From sequence record MT764208.1: a stretch of 64,000 nt of DNA. The stretch is one strand, 5' to 3'. The position numbers were made by a program, and so were the translations under genes. Within the stretch, counting starts at the first letter, position 1. Every line of letters starts with the position of its first letter. Source of the stretch: Escherichia phage JEP8. Under the pieces are notes generated by a model. It saw nothing but the letters and a program-made list of their open reading frames with translations. It was not told the DNA's origin and did no database searches. Positions 131-20,175 of the stretch are shown here, in pieces.

Positions 131-372
131 ATACGACCCTTTAACCCAGCACAGATTTTAGTCGGTTCTTTACCGTGCCACATTAAGTAAAGTCCGTTAA
201 TGCGACCTTGTTTTGTGTGTGATTCTTTTCTGATCTTCTTATAGTGTCGTGCTTCCTCAACCGATTGTTTAGAATACCAATCATAAAGGAAGAGGCACAA
301 AGGCCAACCATTAGCGGCCTTAATGCAGTTATTAAGAAATTCCTTATTGCGTTTAATTAATTTTCTTTTCAC
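127..372 (-). CDS. hypothetical small early protein (81 aa)
   Basis: minus-strand ORF, abuts neighbouring ORFs in the same orientation. Confidence 0.45.
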   Translation of the reverse strand: MKRKLIKRNKEFLNNCIKAANGWPLCLFLYDWYSKQSVEEARHYKKIRKESHTKQGRINGLYLMWHGKEPTKICAGLKGRI

Positions 373-620
373 GCTGCCCCCATTGGTTTGATAGTAACAG
401 AATCTAAAAGACCTTTGTTAGCCAGTTCGCGGCAAGTTTTCAGATCCGCAACTTCCCAGCCAGCCGCAATCAGGTTATCAATCAGGCTGTTAGCAACTTC
501 TTCGCTCATGAAAGAGCACTGTTTGCCGATGGTGTAGCGTACACGCTGTAATTTCAGTTTACGGAAGCCTTTAACGTTCAGGTCTTTAGCGATTTTCTTT
601 GCGGTTTCGATGTTAGCCAT
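369..620 (-). CDS. hypothetical small early protein (83 aa)
   Basis: ORF preceded by conserved GGAGAATC RBS and promoter cassette at 661-689. Confidence 0.55.
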   Translation of the reverse strand: MANIETAKKIAKDLNVKGFRKLKLQRVRYTIGKQCSFMSEEVANSLIDNLIAAGWEVADLKTCRELANKGLLDSVTIKPMGAA

Positions 621-660
621 TGTTTGATTCTCCTAAGTGGTATCTCGTCTTGATGGTTGT

Positions 661-689
661 ATTGTAGGGGAGTTATCCTCCCCTGTCAA
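661..689 (-). promoter_or_regulatory. early sigma70-type promoter TTGACA-N17-TACAAT with palindromic spacer
   Basis: spacer GGGGAGGATAACTCCCC; A/T-rich tract upstream; drives 369..620. Confidence 0.6.
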
Positions 690-703
690 CACTTTTTATA
701 AAA

Positions 704-871
704 TTATTTGTTAATTTCTGGTGCGTTGCTAGGATAGTAACCTTCTTTAACTCCGAGGTATTTCGCAACCATCCCTACAATCTTCTGTGCTACTACAATG
801 TCAAATTTCAGATAATCTTCGCCGTGGGTTTCAATGATATATGCTTCACATGCTGCTTTAGTCTCGAACAT
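704..871 (-). CDS. hypothetical 55-aa protein, copy 1 of a duplicated gene (MFETKAACEAYIIETHGEDYLKFDIVVAQKIVGMVAKYLGVKEGYYPSNAPEINK)
   Basis: below the 60-aa track cutoff; hand-translated; near-identical to 3962..4129; RBS and promoter cassette upstream. Confidence 0.5.
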   Translation of the reverse strand: MFETKAACEAYIIETHGEDYLKFDIVVAQKIVGMVAKYLGVKEGYYPSNAPEINK

Positions 872-14404: not shown

Positions 14405-14881
14405 TTAATCATGACCGTGATTTGCAATATCCGCTCGCGTCTTATCTTTGTGATTTCCTACGTCAAAGACACGATAACCATTTTCACGCAAAACTTTAAT
14501 CACTTCTGGGTTATCCTCAAAGACTCCGACAACTTCATCTTTATCAAAGGATTTAATTACCTCTAATTTGATGTGATAGTCTTTACGGGAATCGGTACGG
14601 CCTCTCATAAAGATTTTATCAAAACACACCCCGTTAGAAATTAACCAATCAATTGTTTCCATGTAAGCATGTGAACTTCGTCCGGTGAGGATGTAAATCA
14701 AATGCCCGTTGTCGGAAAGAGCATTAATAACACGAATTACATCGTAAATGGGGGAATCTCCCCCACATGCCTTGTTATATTCGATCCATGACTCGACTTT
14801 ATCAAGATTTTCGGTTGGCATCTTTGCTAGTCGATGTGTTGGATCTGTGATCGTAAAATCTAAATCGACAAAATATATCAT
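14405..14881 (-). CDS. HAD-superfamily phosphatase-like protein
   Basis: N-terminal DxDxT motif (FVDLDFTIT), ILTGRS, EDNPE; terminator hairpin downstream. Confidence 0.55.
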   Translation of the reverse strand: MIYFVDLDFTITDPTHRLAKMPTENLDKVESWIEYNKACGGDSPIYDVIRVINALSDNGHLIYILTGRSSHAYMETIDWLISNGVCFDKIFMRGRTDSRKDYHIKLEVIKSFDKDEVVGVFEDNPEVIKVLRENGYRVFDVGNHKDKTRADIANHGHD

Positions 14882-16038
14882 AGATATTTCCCGAATCGGT
14901 TGTAGTCATCGTCTGTTAAATCGGTATTAACCTGAGATACCAGATACATGATCTCTACTTCCTGCGCTGCATTCTGTACTTCGTCAGAGTTCAACCATTT
15001 ACGCATCCACGGTAACGGATGACGACGAACACTAAACGGGCTTTTCAGTCCGGCTGCACGCATACGGGAATCTGCCAGGTATTCTACATAGGTTTTCAGA
15101 ATTTCCGGTGACAGGTTAGGAATTGCCCCCATTGCGAATAGGTGGTCTACCCATTCTTTTTCTTGCTCGACAACATCCAGAAAGATTTTCGTTGCTTCGC
15201 CTTCAAGTTCTTCCGCAATCTGTTTCCACTCATCACCATCAACCCCCGTTTGCCATTGACGAATAATGTATTGTGTGCCTTTTAAGTGAAGTTGTTCATC
15301 ACGCGCAATAAATTTCATGATCTTCGCGTTACCTTCCAGTAAACCACGTTCGGCAAAGCTGAAAGTACATGCAAAGGACACATAAAAACGAATTGCTTCC
15401 AGTGCATTGACGCAGTGTGCACACAGATAAATCGAAGCCATCAGATCTCGTTTTGTATCTTCAAAAAATCTTCTTGCATCATCTAATGCTGTCTGGTCGT
15501 CTCGTTCTTCCCAATAGCGGAGATCTTCTTTTGCATTCTCATACTTACGAATCCAATAAAGAACGTCATCATAATATTTCCCGATAGATTCCGCTCGCTT
15601 CATGATAGCAGGGTTATCGATGATCTGGTCGAACTCACTAGCCGGATCAATGAAACAGTTACGCATAATGTGTGTATAGCTTCGGCTATGAATCGTTTCG
15701 CTGAATGTCCATGTTTGCAACCATGTATCGAGAGTTGGATCAGATACAATTGGACCAAATGCTGCGGACGGTGCGCGACCTTGAATAGAATCAAGTAATG
15801 TCTGATACTTCAAGTTTTCAGTAAAGAAACGCTTTTCAACGTCACCCATATTAAGATATTGAATGCGGTCGGTTGCAAGTGAAATTTCTTCGGGGCGCCA
15901 AAAAAATGACAATTGCTTTTCGATCAGTTCTTCAAATACTTGATGACGCTGAATATCATAGCGAGCGATACCCAACCCACTACCCAGAAACATTGGTTCG
16001 TTCATAATATCAACATGTTCGCGGTTAAATACGCTCAT
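14878..16038 (-). CDS. nrdB: ribonucleotide reductase class Ia small (beta) subunit
   Basis: diiron/tyrosyl-radical NrdB pattern; uninterrupted ORF, no intron. Confidence 0.92.
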   Translation of the reverse strand: MSVFNREHVDIMNEPMFLGSGLGIARYDIQRHQVFEELIEKQLSFFWRPEEISLATDRIQYLNMGDVEKRFFTENLKYQTLLDSIQGRAPSAAFGPIVSDPTLDTWLQTWTFSETIHSRSYTHIMRNCFIDPASEFDQIIDNPAIMKRAESIGKYYDDVLYWIRKYENAKEDLRYWEERDDQTALDDARRFFEDTKRDLMASIYLCAHCVNALEAIRFYVSFACTFSFAERGLLEGNAKIMKFIARDEQLHLKGTQYIIRQWQTGVDGDEWKQIAEELEGEATKIFLDVVEQEKEWVDHLFAMGAIPNLSPEILKTYVEYLADSRMRAAGLKSPFSVRRHPLPWMRKWLNSDEVQNAAQEVEIMYLVSQVNTDLTDDDYNRFGKYL

Positions 16039-16053
16039 TAATTCACCTCACTA

Positions 16054-16221
16054 TCACTTTTTAACACAAAAGAACTTAGTATTTCTGTTAACTTCGCTAT
16101 CCTGCTGCAATTCCTGCACAGCTTCAAAACAATTTTGATATGATGAAAACTCTACGCTGGTAACAGTTCCTTTATTATATACGCCTACGCTAACGGAAAG
16201 CAATAACCATATTGTAGCCAT
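16054..16221 (-). CDS. hypothetical 55-aa protein with hydrophobic N-terminus (MATIWLLLSVSVGVY...)
   Basis: hand-translated; paralog of adjacent ORF; TAATG coupling. Confidence 0.4.
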   Translation of the reverse strand: MATIWLLLSVSVGVYNKGTVTSVEFSSYQNCFEAVQELQQDSEVNRNTKFFCVKK

Positions 16222-16394
16222 TAGTTCACCTTTTGTTTTTCAACGCAATATAGATTCATAAAGCGTTTATTGTCTTCGCGGATAATCTCGCGAGCTTTAA
16301 CGAAATCCTGCTTTGTTGCAAATTCAATGCTTGACATATTTCCGTAATTATACATTGAATTGCTGATTGCAATCAATAACCATACAGTAGCCAT
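16221..16394 (-). CDS. hypothetical 57-aa protein with hydrophobic N-terminus (MATVWLLIAISNSMY...)
   Basis: hand-translated; tandem paralog of 16054..16221. Confidence 0.4.
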   Translation of the reverse strand: MATVWLLIAISNSMYNYGNMSSIEFATKQDFVKAREIIREDNKRFMNLYCVEKQKVN

Positions 16395-16438
16395 TATTCG
16401 ACAACCTCAAAGCATTTATCATCAGGAAGAATAGCCCA

Positions 16439-16561
16439 TTATATGCCGTATTCATCCTCAACGTAGTAGCAACTCCCATCATGTCGAGCATCATATACAT
16501 CACCGACAACAAAGCTATCAGCTAGCTCAAAATCTACAGCAACACATTTTAATTTGGTCAT
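16439..16561 (-). CDS. hypothetical 40-aa protein
   Basis: track ORF trimmed (upstream part is promoter cassette read-through). Confidence 0.3.
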   Translation of the reverse strand: MTKLKCVAVDFELADSFVVGDVYDARHDGSCYYVEDEYGI

Positions 16562-16592
16562 AATAAAATCCTCACTTGTTTTTGATGGTTGA

Positions 16593-16621
16593 ATTATAGC
16601 GGGGATTTCTCCCCGCGTCAA
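16593..16621 (-). promoter_or_regulatory. early promoter TTGACG-N17-TATAAT with palindromic spacer CGGGGAGAAATCCCCGC
   Basis: between nrdA and nrdB. Confidence 0.6.
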
Positions 16622-16629
16622 CACTTATT

Positions 16630-18873
16630 TTACAGCTTGCAAGATGAGCACTCGCTAGAGTCTTCCGTACCATCTGCACCGTCGCGAACGTTCGCATAAT
16701 ACAGGGTTTTCAGACCGTAATATTGAGCAAACAACATATCATCTAAAACATCAGCAATATCGACTTTACCAGTCTTATAAGTGCTTGGATCGTAGGATGT
16801 ATTGGAACTAATCGCCTGATCCACAAACTTCTGCATGATCGCTGCCAGTGTCAGATAAGGCTTGTTACCTTTCTTGATCAGTGTCCAAAGCAGGTCAATA
16901 ACATCAGCATTATTCTCTACGTTCGGAATGACCTGATTAAATTGCCCTTCTTTCGATCCTTTAACCGATACAATCCCGCGAGGCGGTTCAATACCGTTTG
17001 TGCTGTTAGATACCTGAGAAGACGACTCACACGGCATCAGCGCCGAAAGTGTACTGTTACGAATGCCATATTTTTTCAGGTCTTCGCGCAGTTCTTCCCA
17101 ATCCATCTCATACACAGGATCAACCAGTTCATCTACTGTCTTTTTGTACCAGTCGATAGGAAGTTCACCGCGACCATAGCGTGTTTCGTGCATCAGTTCG
17201 CAAGCACCCTTCTCTTTAGCCAGTTGCACACTAGCCTTAATCAGAGCATATTGCAAGCGTTCAAACGTTTTATGCGTAAACTCGTTAGCGTCTTCATATG
17301 TGAAGAAATTATCTGCTAGATATGATGCAAAGTTAGTCACACCAACACCCAGAGAGCGACGTTTTTTGGCTGTCAGAGCTTGTTCTACAGGATAATCCTG
17401 GTAATCTAACAGGTTGTCAAGTGCACGCACCATAACCATAGCGATCCGCTCTACTTCTTCCATATTTTCGATATCAAAGTTTCCTAAAACATATGCTGCC
17501 AAAGTACATAGGCTGATCTCTGAATCATCACGACCCATCGGTTTAGTAGGCAGAGCAATTTCACAACACAGGTTAGATTGTTTAATCGGTGCTACATTAC
17601 GAATAAACGCCCCGTGATTGTTCATGTTGTCTGTGAACGTTGGGTAGATTCGACCAGTGTTAAAACGTTCAATTGCCACCGCTAAAAACAGGTCTTCGGC
17701 TTTAACACGAGTTTTACGAACACTCGGATCTTTTTCCAGTTTTTCGTAAAGCTGACGGAAACCTTCCTCATCTCGGAAGTATAGATCCCACAACAAGCCA
17801 CCTGCAACATCTGGACTAAACAGAGTAATGTAATCCCGTTTAAGGAATCGCTCTACCATCAGGTTATTAATCTGTACGCCGTAATCAAGATGACGAATGC
17901 GGTTATCTTCCACCCCCTTATTGTTCTTTAACACAATCAGACTTTCAAACTCTAAATGCCACATTGGGTAATAGAGAGTCGCCGCCCCGCCACGAATACC
18001 GCCTTGTGAGCATGACTTAACAGCAGTCTGAAAATGTTTCCAGAATGGGATAACGCCAGTATGACGAACTTCACCATGCCCGATCTTAGATCCTTCCGCG
18101 CGAATCATGCCAGCGTTGATACCGATACCAGCACGCTTGCTAATATACTTGATGATTGCATTTGCTGTTTCGTTGATGCCCTGCAATGAGTCATCACTTT
18201 CAATCACAACACACGAACTAAATTGGCGTGTTGGTGTACGCACACCTGCCATAATCGGAGTAGGCAGAGAGATTTGCTTATTCGCAACAGCATTATAAAA
18301 ATCAATCACATGTTCAAGTCGATTTTCTGTCTCTTCTTGATGCAAGCACATACCGATCAGCATATACGCAAATTGCGGTGTTTCGATGATTTTCTTAGTG
18401 CTGCGATCCTGAACAAGATATTTCTCTTTTAACTGCATAGCACCAGCATAGGTCATTTTAAAATCAAGTTTATGGTCGATGAATTTCTCCAGATATTCCA
18501 CTTCTTCACGGGAATACTTTTGTAGAATTTCACGATCATATTTTCCGGTTGCAATATTACGCTCAATATGGCTGTAAAAATCAATCGGTTGGAATTGACC
18601 GTATACTGATTTGCGAAGCGCGAACATTGCAAGGTTACTTGCTACATATTGATAATCTGGTGTTTCTACAGTAATGTTATCTGCGGCGACCTTAATCAAT
18701 ACTTTCTGGATATCATTGGTAGACATACCTTCTGTCAGAAGTGGTTCAACCATATCAAACAATTCATATGGATCAACGTTATGACCTTCGGCTGCCGCTT
18801 CCAGAATTTTCATTACTTTTTCTTTTTCAAACGGAACAGTCAGACCGGAAGACTTAACAACATTTTTAATCAT
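16630..18873 (-). CDS. nrdA: ribonucleotide reductase class Ia large (alpha) subunit
   Basis: 747 aa with N-terminal ATP-cone and C-terminal cysteines; similar to T4/E. coli NrdA. Confidence 0.93.
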   Translation of the reverse strand: MIKNVVKSSGLTVPFEKEKVMKILEAAAEGHNVDPYELFDMVEPLLTEGMSTNDIQKVLIKVAADNITVETPDYQYVASNLAMFALRKSVYGQFQPIDFYSHIERNIATGKYDREILQKYSREEVEYLEKFIDHKLDFKMTYAGAMQLKEKYLVQDRSTKKIIETPQFAYMLIGMCLHQEETENRLEHVIDFYNAVANKQISLPTPIMAGVRTPTRQFSSCVVIESDDSLQGINETANAIIKYISKRAGIGINAGMIRAEGSKIGHGEVRHTGVIPFWKHFQTAVKSCSQGGIRGGAATLYYPMWHLEFESLIVLKNNKGVEDNRIRHLDYGVQINNLMVERFLKRDYITLFSPDVAGGLLWDLYFRDEEGFRQLYEKLEKDPSVRKTRVKAEDLFLAVAIERFNTGRIYPTFTDNMNNHGAFIRNVAPIKQSNLCCEIALPTKPMGRDDSEISLCTLAAYVLGNFDIENMEEVERIAMVMVRALDNLLDYQDYPVEQALTAKKRRSLGVGVTNFASYLADNFFTYEDANEFTHKTFERLQYALIKASVQLAKEKGACELMHETRYGRGELPIDWYKKTVDELVDPVYEMDWEELREDLKKYGIRNSTLSALMPCESSSQVSNSTNGIEPPRGIVSVKGSKEGQFNQVIPNVENNADVIDLLWTLIKKGNKPYLTLAAIMQKFVDQAISSNTSYDPSTYKTGKVDIADVLDDMLFAQYYGLKTLYYANVRDGADGTEDSSECSSCKL

Positions 18874-18942: not shown

Positions 18943-20175
18943 TTATACTGCCATTTGAGCGGTGATCGCTGGATGGCTTTGATAGTTGTGAATTTTAAAG
19001 TCTTTCGGAGTCTTTGTCAATACCTCATCTAAAGATTTAAATTCCGGCAACTCGATTGTTGGTTTATCAAACGGAACACGGCTTAACTGTTCCATAACTT
19101 GATCAAAATGGTTTTTGTAAATGTGAGTATCTCCACCAGAGAAAATCAGTTCTCCTACCTCAAGGTCACACATTTTAGCTATGATGTGAGTTAACAGCGC
19201 ATAGCTGGCGACGTTAAAGGGCAAGCCCAAAAAGCTGTCTACGCTTCGCTGAAACCACATACAAGACAGTTTACCCTCATTGACATAGAATTGCACGAAC
19301 GGATGACATACACCTAATACAGCATTATGTGTTCCTTGTACGTTCCATGAGTCAATGATGATACGTCGATCCGTTGGATTGTTTTTAATTTGTTCAATCA
19401 CGTTTTGTAACTGGTCTTCCCAAATCTTCGGGCGATAGACATATTCTTCATCGTCTTTAGTGCTCGATGTGTCTACGTCCATACTAGCAAAGATCGTGGT
19501 ATCGGGTGCTAAAATATCCCCACCCAGATAATCACTATCAAGCAGATAACCGAAATAACCATCATCTACCCATTCCTGGAATCCCCACAAGCAATATGCA
19601 TCATTAACAAAATTAGATTGAGTCTTCCAGTGATCTGCTACTAAGAATTGATTATATTCAGAATCAAACTCTTCATAACGCATACCACGCCAGATAGCAC
19701 ATAAACGGTCTTCTGTGTCGTTGGTTGGCGTAAAGTCTTCTACCCACGGGTGTTTAAATGTATGTGTATATTTGCTCTTAACGCGCTTAATTTTGATTTC
19801 ACCGTGTGGATGAATCGGTTTGCGTCGCCATGCCATACCATACATATTGCCAACATTATAGCCGTTGAATCGTAGCGGATTCTTTTCTTTCATATCAAGA
19901 CAGTTGCCGCGCCAAATGTCGAAGGCTTCTTCGTCAAACTGACCGCGTGTAATTTCCTGTAATCGACGGCGGTCAAGTGATCCCTCCATAAACCATAGCA
20001 ACTCGCCAATTACAGAGGCTGTAGCCATCTTTTTAGTGGTCAGTAATGGGAAACCCTTGCTTAAATCAATTCGCATCTCTGCGCCGAATTTAGAGAGCGT
20101 ACCTACCCCCGTGCGGTCTTCACGAGGCCAGCCATTATCAAGAACATCACGCAATAGTTTCAAATATTCTTTCAT
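18943..20175 (-). CDS. td: thymidylate synthase with ~110-aa internal insertion
   Basis: N-terminal (DRTGTGT, TTKK), catalytic (CH.F.QF), and C-terminal (LGLPFNIASYALL, HPAITAQMAV) TS blocks present; 410 aa versus ~286 for T4 Td. Confidence 0.88.
   Translation of the reverse strand: MKEYLKLLRDVLDNGWPREDRTGVGTLSKFGAEMRIDLSKGFPLLTTKKMATASVIGELLWFMEGSLDRRRLQEITRGQFDEEAFDIWRGNCLDMKEKNPLRFNGYNVGNMYGMAWRRKPIHPHGEIKIKRVKSKYTHTFKHPWVEDFTPTNDTEDRLCAIWRGMRYEEFDSEYNQFLVADHWKTQSNFVNDAYCLWGFQEWVDDGYFGYLLDSDYLGGDILAPDTTIFASMDVDTSSTKDDEEYVYRPKIWEDQLQNVIEQIKNNPTDRRIIIDSWNVQGTHNAVLGVCHPFVQFYVNEGKLSCMWFQRSVDSFLGLPFNVASYALLTHIIAKMCDLEVGELIFSGGDTHIYKNHFDQVMEQLSRVPFDKPTIELPEFKSLDEVLTKTPKDFKIHNYQSHPAITAQMAV

Follow-up and report, generated by a model that had tools for sequence, protein, structure and literature searches.

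Tandem mini-protein genes between nrdA and nrdB of Escherichia phage JEP8 belong to a widespread, uncharacterised phage protein family

The spacer between nrdA and nrdB of Escherichia phage JEP8 raises the question of what is encoded by two small open reading frames (ORFs) that lie in it: that is, whether they are genes, which proteins they resemble, and where in the cell their products would act. A sequence-only reading of the 64,000-nucleotide stretch analysed here (the window) had described them as paralogous, translationally coupled ORFs with signal-like N-termini. We find both on the minus strand in the ORF list: an upstream ORF of 57 aa at 16221..16394, which begins MATVWLLIAISNSMY / MATVWLLIAISNSMYNYG and is the ortholog of RB49p232, and a downstream ORF of 55 aa at 16054..16221, which begins MATIWLLLSVSVGVY / MATIWLLLSVSVGVYNKG and is the ortholog of RB49p231; each is a member of the family phrog_5579. 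The two proteins are 36% identical, with 73% positives, over their full length (BLASTP, E 2e-14), a similarity far beyond chance that bears out the paralogy, and they are missing from the 60-aa ORF track because they are only 57 and 55 aa long. The spacer is flanked upstream by nrdA (16630..18873, minus) and downstream by nrdB (14878..16038, minus), which starts 15 nt downstream of the 55-aa ORF and has its own ribosome-binding site, GAGGTG; the assignment of both flanks, and with it the placement of the pair between nrdA and nrdB, agrees with the RB49 annotation. The spacer also holds a third small ORF (16439..16561, minus; 40 aa here), the ortholog of RB49p233 (phrog_16302, E 5e-28), and a strong promoter-like site, both of which the earlier reading had overlooked. 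No further family copies emerged when every stop-to-stop segment in the 64-kb window was scanned with an HMM, and an Rfam search of 15900..16800 gave only a chance-level snoRNA match (E 0.33) and no sign of a structured RNA in place of the genes.

Two genes beyond the nrd flanks are recorded here as side observations. The nrdB stop codon is overlapped (ATGA) by an ORF at 14405..14881 (minus) whose product, a HAD phosphatase of 158 aa, is similar to polynucleotide kinase in the 3'-phosphatase domain only (PF25109, E 3e-13); its counterpart is called 'polynucleotide kinase' in the RB49 record, and a kinase domain was not detected in the window protein. On the far side of nrdA, a thymidylate synthase gene (18943..20175, minus) encodes a protein of 410 aa, as long as that of RB49, in which the match to the Pfam Thymidylat_synt profile is split past profile position about 110 by an insertion of about 140 aa. 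The T4 td gene carries a group I intron with I-TevI.

The junction between the paired ORFs can be read directly from the sequence. The stop codon of the 57-aa ORF, TAA (16223..16221), and the start codon of the 55-aa ORF, ATG (16221..16219), have one base in common and so form the overlap TAATG (16219..16223, minus), as had been claimed. A Shine-Dalgarno-like AGGTG (16227..16231, minus) lies 5 nt ahead of the ATG of the 55-aa ORF, within the last codons (..K V N) of the 57-aa ORF, and its equivalent is annotated as a ribosome-binding site in the Makalu_003 record; a Shine-Dalgarno-like GAGG (16405..16408, minus) lies 10 nt ahead of the ATG of the 57-aa ORF, again at a position annotated as a ribosome-binding site in Makalu_003. 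The junction, TAATGGC, is kept in 16 of 16 Krischvirus loci inspected, and in RB49 all three small ORFs are chained through TAATG overlaps, the end of RB49p233 overlapping the 57-aa ORF in this way. The layout is that of a coupled pair, with a stop/start overlap and a ribosome-binding site inside the upstream ORF, and we infer that translation of the two ORFs would be tightly linked.

Conservation in related phages, which the sequence-only reading had proposed as a check, is readily found. Over the 801 bases around the ORF pair, 58 phage records show 96-98% identity, and almost all of them come from Escherichia or Shigella Krischvirus (RB49, Phi1, GEC-3S, ELT4); the Krischvirus records that carry the 55-aa and the 57-aa gene number 54 and 52, respectively, and a scan of viral contigs for related loci added two Krischvirus contigs only. 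Across a sample of 13-15 Krischvirus loci, pN/pS for the 57-aa ORF is 0.07 in frame vs. 1.2 and 4.3 in the shifted frames, and pN/pS for the 55-aa ORF is 0.22 in frame vs. 0.84 and 1.18 in the shifted frames; the pairwise sums are phylogenetically non-independent, which makes the ratios descriptive, but the frame contrast is still clear. Variable sites fall at codon positions 1, 2, and 3 in the numbers 4, 1, and 10 for the 57-aa ORF and 10, 5, and 21 for the 55-aa ORF, third positions dominating in both. Purifying selection confined to the coding frame indicates selection on the amino acids, beyond selection on the DNA or on the mere fact of translation. We conclude with high confidence that the ORFs are real, conserved genes of the phrog_5579/3766 family.

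Two differences set the window locus apart from its relatives. In the 57-aa ORF, codon 31 (16302..16304, minus) reads TTC instead of TGC, replacing by Phe a Cys that is present at position 31 in 12 of 12 other sampled loci with the 57-aa gene; the change, C31F, is private to this window (among the 52 Krischvirus records the best match is 98.2%, and none is identical) and makes the window 57-aa protein the sole one-Cys member among 82 family sequences. In the RB49p233 ortholog, a GAA-to-TAA nonsense change at codon 41 (stop at 16439..16441) shortens the product from 55 to 40 aa, and beyond the nonsense codon the old frame runs on without a stop as far as the TAATG overlap at 16394. On the coding strand, C31F and the nonsense change alike replace G with T, and they may be real variants or errors of sequencing or stock. 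RB49p233 is also broken, independently, in G37-3 (E12*) and FL20 (a frameshift), and thus looks dispensable; its ortholog here shows weak similarity to DUF7244.

The promoter-like site offers a candidate start for a transcript across the spacer. A consensus scan places a σ70-type TTGACG-17-TATAAT, with 11 of 12 matches, at 16593..16621 (minus), 8 nt past the nrdA stop, and its 17-nt spacer is a GC hairpin, CGGGGAGAAATCCCCG. The site is identical in 15 of 16 Krischvirus loci and is annotated as a promoter in GEC-3S and as a terminator (hairpin) in Makalu_003; it may serve in both roles. For T-even phages without mobE, Wilson and Edgell (PMC2790892) report a middle promoter of nrdB located at the nrdA 3' end or within the spacer, and the position of 16593..16621 suggests, by analogy, that it matches the role of that promoter. 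As a predicted promoter, the site would probably start a transcript spanning the RB49p233 ortholog, the two paralogs, and nrdB, and the paralogs would probably be transcribed, early, as the leader part of the nrdB transcript. A literature search for a Krischvirus transcriptome returned unrelated papers only.

The spacer is plastic. KMB43 has a DNA-cytosine methyltransferase gene inserted after nrdA; phiS, SSG23, and G5211 have an annotated HNH/homing endonuclease between the 55-aa ORF and nrdB; and G37-3 has, at the endonuclease position before nrdB, an unnamed ORF of 179 aa, the same length as the endonucleases of phiS, SSG23, and G5211. Free-standing homing endonucleases are known to land in the T4 nrdA-nrdB slot (PMC2790892), and because the insertions in these five phages mirror mobE in T4, we regard the spacer as a recurrent landing slot for mobile genes. 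The T4 spacer, with mobE and nrdB.1, is 696 nt long vs. 591 nt in the window, contrary to the earlier suggestion that T4 is the more compact.

The pair itself is also subject to change. G37-3 (locus L007, 1501..1668) and FL20 (locus L008, 1501..1668) carry a single hybrid copy, in which the upstream flank and the first 21 nt derive from the 57-aa gene and the rest derives from the 55-aa gene, a structure implying that one unit was deleted by recombination across the common 5' 21 nt. A metagenomic protein, P0013, is a 44-aa in-frame chimera of both paralogs joined at a GCAGGAT microhomology, and, together with the hybrids, it points to ongoing unequal recombination between the paralogs. In a metagenomic relative (locus L017, 37..204 and 217..717), the nrdB protein is 93% identical but the preceding family member, which has a TAATG junction to a different upstream ORF, is only 51% identical, which indicates that evolution or exchange is much faster for the small gene than for nrdB, the core gene beside it. 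Judged from these sequences, the paralogs appear to be dispensable and to turn over fast.

To which family do the proteins belong, and how far does it extend? The 55-aa protein matches phrog_5579 with E 4.3e-24 (residues 2-55 on profile positions 1-52 of 52), and the 57-aa protein matches it with E 1e-20 (residues 2-53 on profile positions 1-52 of 52); the family hallmarks W5, L7, F25, C31, A34, and C52-V53 are all present in the 55-aa protein and, with the exception of C31, in the 57-aa protein. A word-indexed search returned mostly Krischvirus copies plus a few distant members, and an exhaustive HMMER search (13-sequence profile, E <= 1e-3) returned 98 clusters, counted as representatives at 50% identity, of which 97 have 44-72 aa and one has 113 aa; in most of them the match covers nearly the full length. 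Among 82 aligned members, 76 match phrog_5579 and 28 match phrog_3766. Searches with both proteins against Pfam, NCBIfam, and PDB sequences, and searches with the 82-member alignment against Pfam and PDB sequences, gave no significant match, and a search for literature on DUF1482, the RB49 locus tags, and the PHROG families returned no papers.

The members lie in phages of several kinds and in varied settings. In the Drexlerviridae phage JeanPiccard, the member is bas02_0072, in a block of small early ORFs; in an Enterobacter Autographiviridae phage, it is an unannotated ORF between an AAA ATPase gene and the DNA polymerase gene; on metagenomic phage contigs, members adjoin Dam or GIY-YIG genes; and in P22/lambda-like prophages of Citrobacter and Salmonella, it lies in a nin-type region between O/P-type replication genes and RusA/Q. 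These prophage members (L029, 8001..8171; L030, 7395..7565) overlap an Ead/Ea22-like gene. An all-against-all BLAST comparison of flanking ORFs from eight non-identical loci, in search of a conserved partner gene, linked only nrdB, and no neighbour is common to all of these settings. Krischvirus alone showed the tandem arrangement; each of the other phages examined carries a single copy. We conclude that the pair is a tandem duplication within a widespread, uncharacterised family, phrog_5579/3766, of mini-proteins of about 50-65 aa.

The predicted fold bears directly on the location of these proteins. With the 82-sequence alignment, AlphaFold2 models the 55-aa protein as β-β-α-α-β at pLDDT 94.1 and pTM 0.73, with predicted elements β1 (5-11), β2 (20-25), α1 (28-39), α2 (42-47), and β3 (48-54); with a shallower alignment, the topology is the same and pLDDT is 79.7. 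The hydrophobic N-terminus (W-L-L-I...) therefore corresponds to strand β1 of a three-stranded sheet, since residues 5-11 are modelled in the sheet at pLDDT of about 91. The best-conserved block of the family is residues 1-11, with a mean entropy of 1.84 bits vs. 2.3-3.7 bits elsewhere; conserved positions are W5 (69 of 82), L7 (79 of 82), C31 (81 of 82), and C52 (82 of 82), and 79 of 82 members have exactly two Cys, the Cys sites being in helix α1 and strand β3. In the 82-member alignment, β1 is hydrophobic at nearly every position, and a monomer of 55 residues cannot bury a strand that is hydrophobic on both faces, which suggests a dimer or a bound partner. Foldseek found nothing in the PDB better than an E of 1, and the fold neighbours in BFVD are dozens of uncharacterised phage proteins of 50-70 aa, one of which is named a DUF1482 family protein.

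According to the alternative that the proteins are membrane-anchored or secreted, which the sequence-only reading had suggested, the N-terminus serves as a short signal or as an anchor, and the mature peptide, of about 40 aa, would have its Cys pair joined as a disulfide in the periplasm and would act, for example, in superinfection exclusion or as an envelope modulator. Several features fit: S-V-G and S-N-S follow the hydrophobic run and obey the signal peptidase (-3,-1) rule, the 15-residue Kyte-Doolittle maximum of the 55-aa protein is 1.82, an invariant pair of Cys would be expected of an exported protein with a disulfide bond, or of a metal site, more than of a plain cytoplasmic binder, and the possibly related YebW/DUF1482 proteins are auto-labelled 'secreted protein' in some sources. 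However, by the criterion of a mean Kyte-Doolittle value of >= 1.6 over about 19 residues for a transmembrane segment (and of about 10-15 residues for the h-region of a signal), which is heuristic only, the 19-residue maxima of the window proteins, 1.11 and 0.61, are too low; only 9 of 82 members reach 1.6, and the median length of the hydrophobic run across the 82 members is 9 residues. The putative signal would be only about 13 residues long; the window proteins begin M-A-T, with no Lys or Arg ahead of the hydrophobic core, and in 74 of 82 family members the net charge before the core is <= 0. The JeanPiccard-type members lack the S-x-G/S motif, and their hydrophobic run, of about 10 residues, is followed by a turn shortened by an indel, as fits a hairpin loop, which tolerates shortening, and not a membrane helix, which would not. 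Signal peptides are not conserved in the way that this N-terminal block, with its near-invariant Trp and Leu, is conserved, and the model places it in the sheet. We conclude that the signal-like, membrane or secreted interpretation is decidedly unlikely, and that the proteins are quite probably soluble domains in which the N-terminus is a β-strand.

The position of the pair suggests two further alternatives, both tied to nrdB. One is that the proteins serve the phage ribonucleotide reductase as accessory factors, such as a thiol/redox or assembly partner, as would suit two near-invariant cysteines, a location between nrdA and nrdB with probable co-transcription with nrdB, and a more distant relative that keeps a family member directly before nrdB. 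Yet outside Krischvirus-like phages the members have no nrd neighbours, lying instead near genes for DNA polymerase, Dam, or GIY-YIG endonuclease, near nin-region genes, or amid small ORFs that carry no annotation; the T4 spacer genes are unrelated, and an HMM scan of about 12 kb around T4 nrdA/nrdB found no family member; the proteins have no CxxC motif and match no thioredoxin or glutaredoxin model; and insertions at the endonuclease position part the family genes from nrdB in phiS, SSG23, G5211, and G37-3, with the 57-aa copy lost in some phages. This makes a reductase factor very improbable. The other alternative, that the ORFs form a translated leader that tunes nrdB expression and that the peptides themselves are functionless, draws on the series of ORFs, overlapping or set close together, that precedes nrdB downstream of the predicted promoter. 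To this we give almost no credence, given the strong purifying selection on the amino acids, the full-length homologs in unrelated phages with other neighbours, the confident predicted fold, and the retention of the ORFs in relatives with an endonuclease gene inserted before nrdB (phiS, SSG23, and G5211).

On balance, and with modest confidence, we lean towards the explanation that the pair comprises duplicated accessory genes for early, cytoplasmic, soluble mini-domain proteins that bind another protein. The paralogs would probably act as homodimers or heterodimers, covering the hydrophobic β1, and would bind another protein, for example a host or defence factor, in the manner of many small early phage proteins; the binding step is the weakest in the proposed sequence. 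Size, fold, genomic setting, and turnover hint weakly at such binding, and the more specific suggestion of a protein-binding modulator of a host or defence factor, made by analogy, is tentative and on the doubtful side. Roles as enzymes or envelope proteins appear unlikely. A broader conjecture, which we consider unlikely as it stands, is that phrog_5579/3766, possibly together with DUF1482/YebW, is one widespread two-Cys mini-domain, made early in T4-like, T1-like, T7-like, and lambdoid phages, that neutralises one common host or defence target, and that the Krischvirus duplication gave rise to two specificities or to a heterodimer; if so, the tandem pair would be a handle on an undescribed class of counter-defence or host-takeover proteins.

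The finding is genuine but fairly ordinary, and adds little as it stands. Its value lies in correcting a tempting "signal peptide" interpretation and in gaining, for a family that spans four kinds of phage and 98 clusters (at 50% identity) but has no Pfam model, solved structure, or literature, a confident fold prediction and two invariant cysteines as targets for mutation. Small early phage proteins of this kind have repeatedly proved to be inhibitors of host or defence proteins. The genes are conserved, duplicated, and easy to delete, and they belong to a tractable E. coli phage, so that a functional screen could reasonably include them at low cost.

Several known systems offer a comparison with the pair. 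To the small phage inhibitors AcrIC8, AcrIIC3, and T4/RB69 Dmd, the likeness suggests functional analogy only, not membership: identities are about 8%, scores are like those of generic split β-α-β matches, and the Foldseek comparison with Dmd gives E 3.9. A further comparison is with DUF1482/YebW (PF07358). Alignment of the family profile with a YebW/DUF1482 profile, prompted by the name of the BFVD neighbour, gives an hhalign probability of 59.5% and E 8.9e-5 over only 17 columns (strand 2 and the Cys at the helix start), which is suggestive of a link but not proof; with the DUF1482 Pfam HMM, the window proteins gave no match at E <= 1, and the 82 relatives gave none at E <= 0.1. The two groups are alike in size and in the order of a hydrophobic N-terminal strand, a Gly-rich turn, a second strand, a helix starting S/T-x-x-x-C, and a later Cys in the final strand. 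They differ in that YebW is chromosomal in Enterobacteriaceae and has four conserved Cys and a C-terminal tail, FIDGFW.PA, whereas the present family has two Cys and stops immediately beyond strand 3. Since the function of YebW is also uncharacterised, the link adds no mechanism. E. coli yebW adjoins pphA, a relative of the lambda NinI phosphatase, and this adjacency and the prophage members in nin-type regions may reflect a shared nin-region origin.

Nearer to the locus itself, T4 mobE and nrdB.1 occupy the same genomic slot as the window pair, but their sequences are unrelated to it, and the window ORFs are not endonucleases; nrdB.1, tried as a candidate relative, was rejected at an hhalign probability of 0.2%. 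The closest counterparts are RB49p231 (NP_891802) and RB49p232 (NP_891803) and their equivalents in Phi1, GEC-3S, and other Krischvirus, which are alike in position, order, lengths (55 and 57 aa), and TAATG junction and are orthologs of the window genes. The genes are thus already known, as RB49 hypothetical proteins that have been in databases for two decades and as members of families catalogued in PHROGs, phrog_5579 and phrog_3766, both of uncharacterised function. The window 55-aa and 57-aa proteins are 96% and 98% identical to RB49p231 and RB49p232, respectively, and the window locus differs from the RB49 pair in the F that replaces the conserved C31 of the 57-aa copy and in the nonsense-truncated ortholog of the neighbouring RB49p233.
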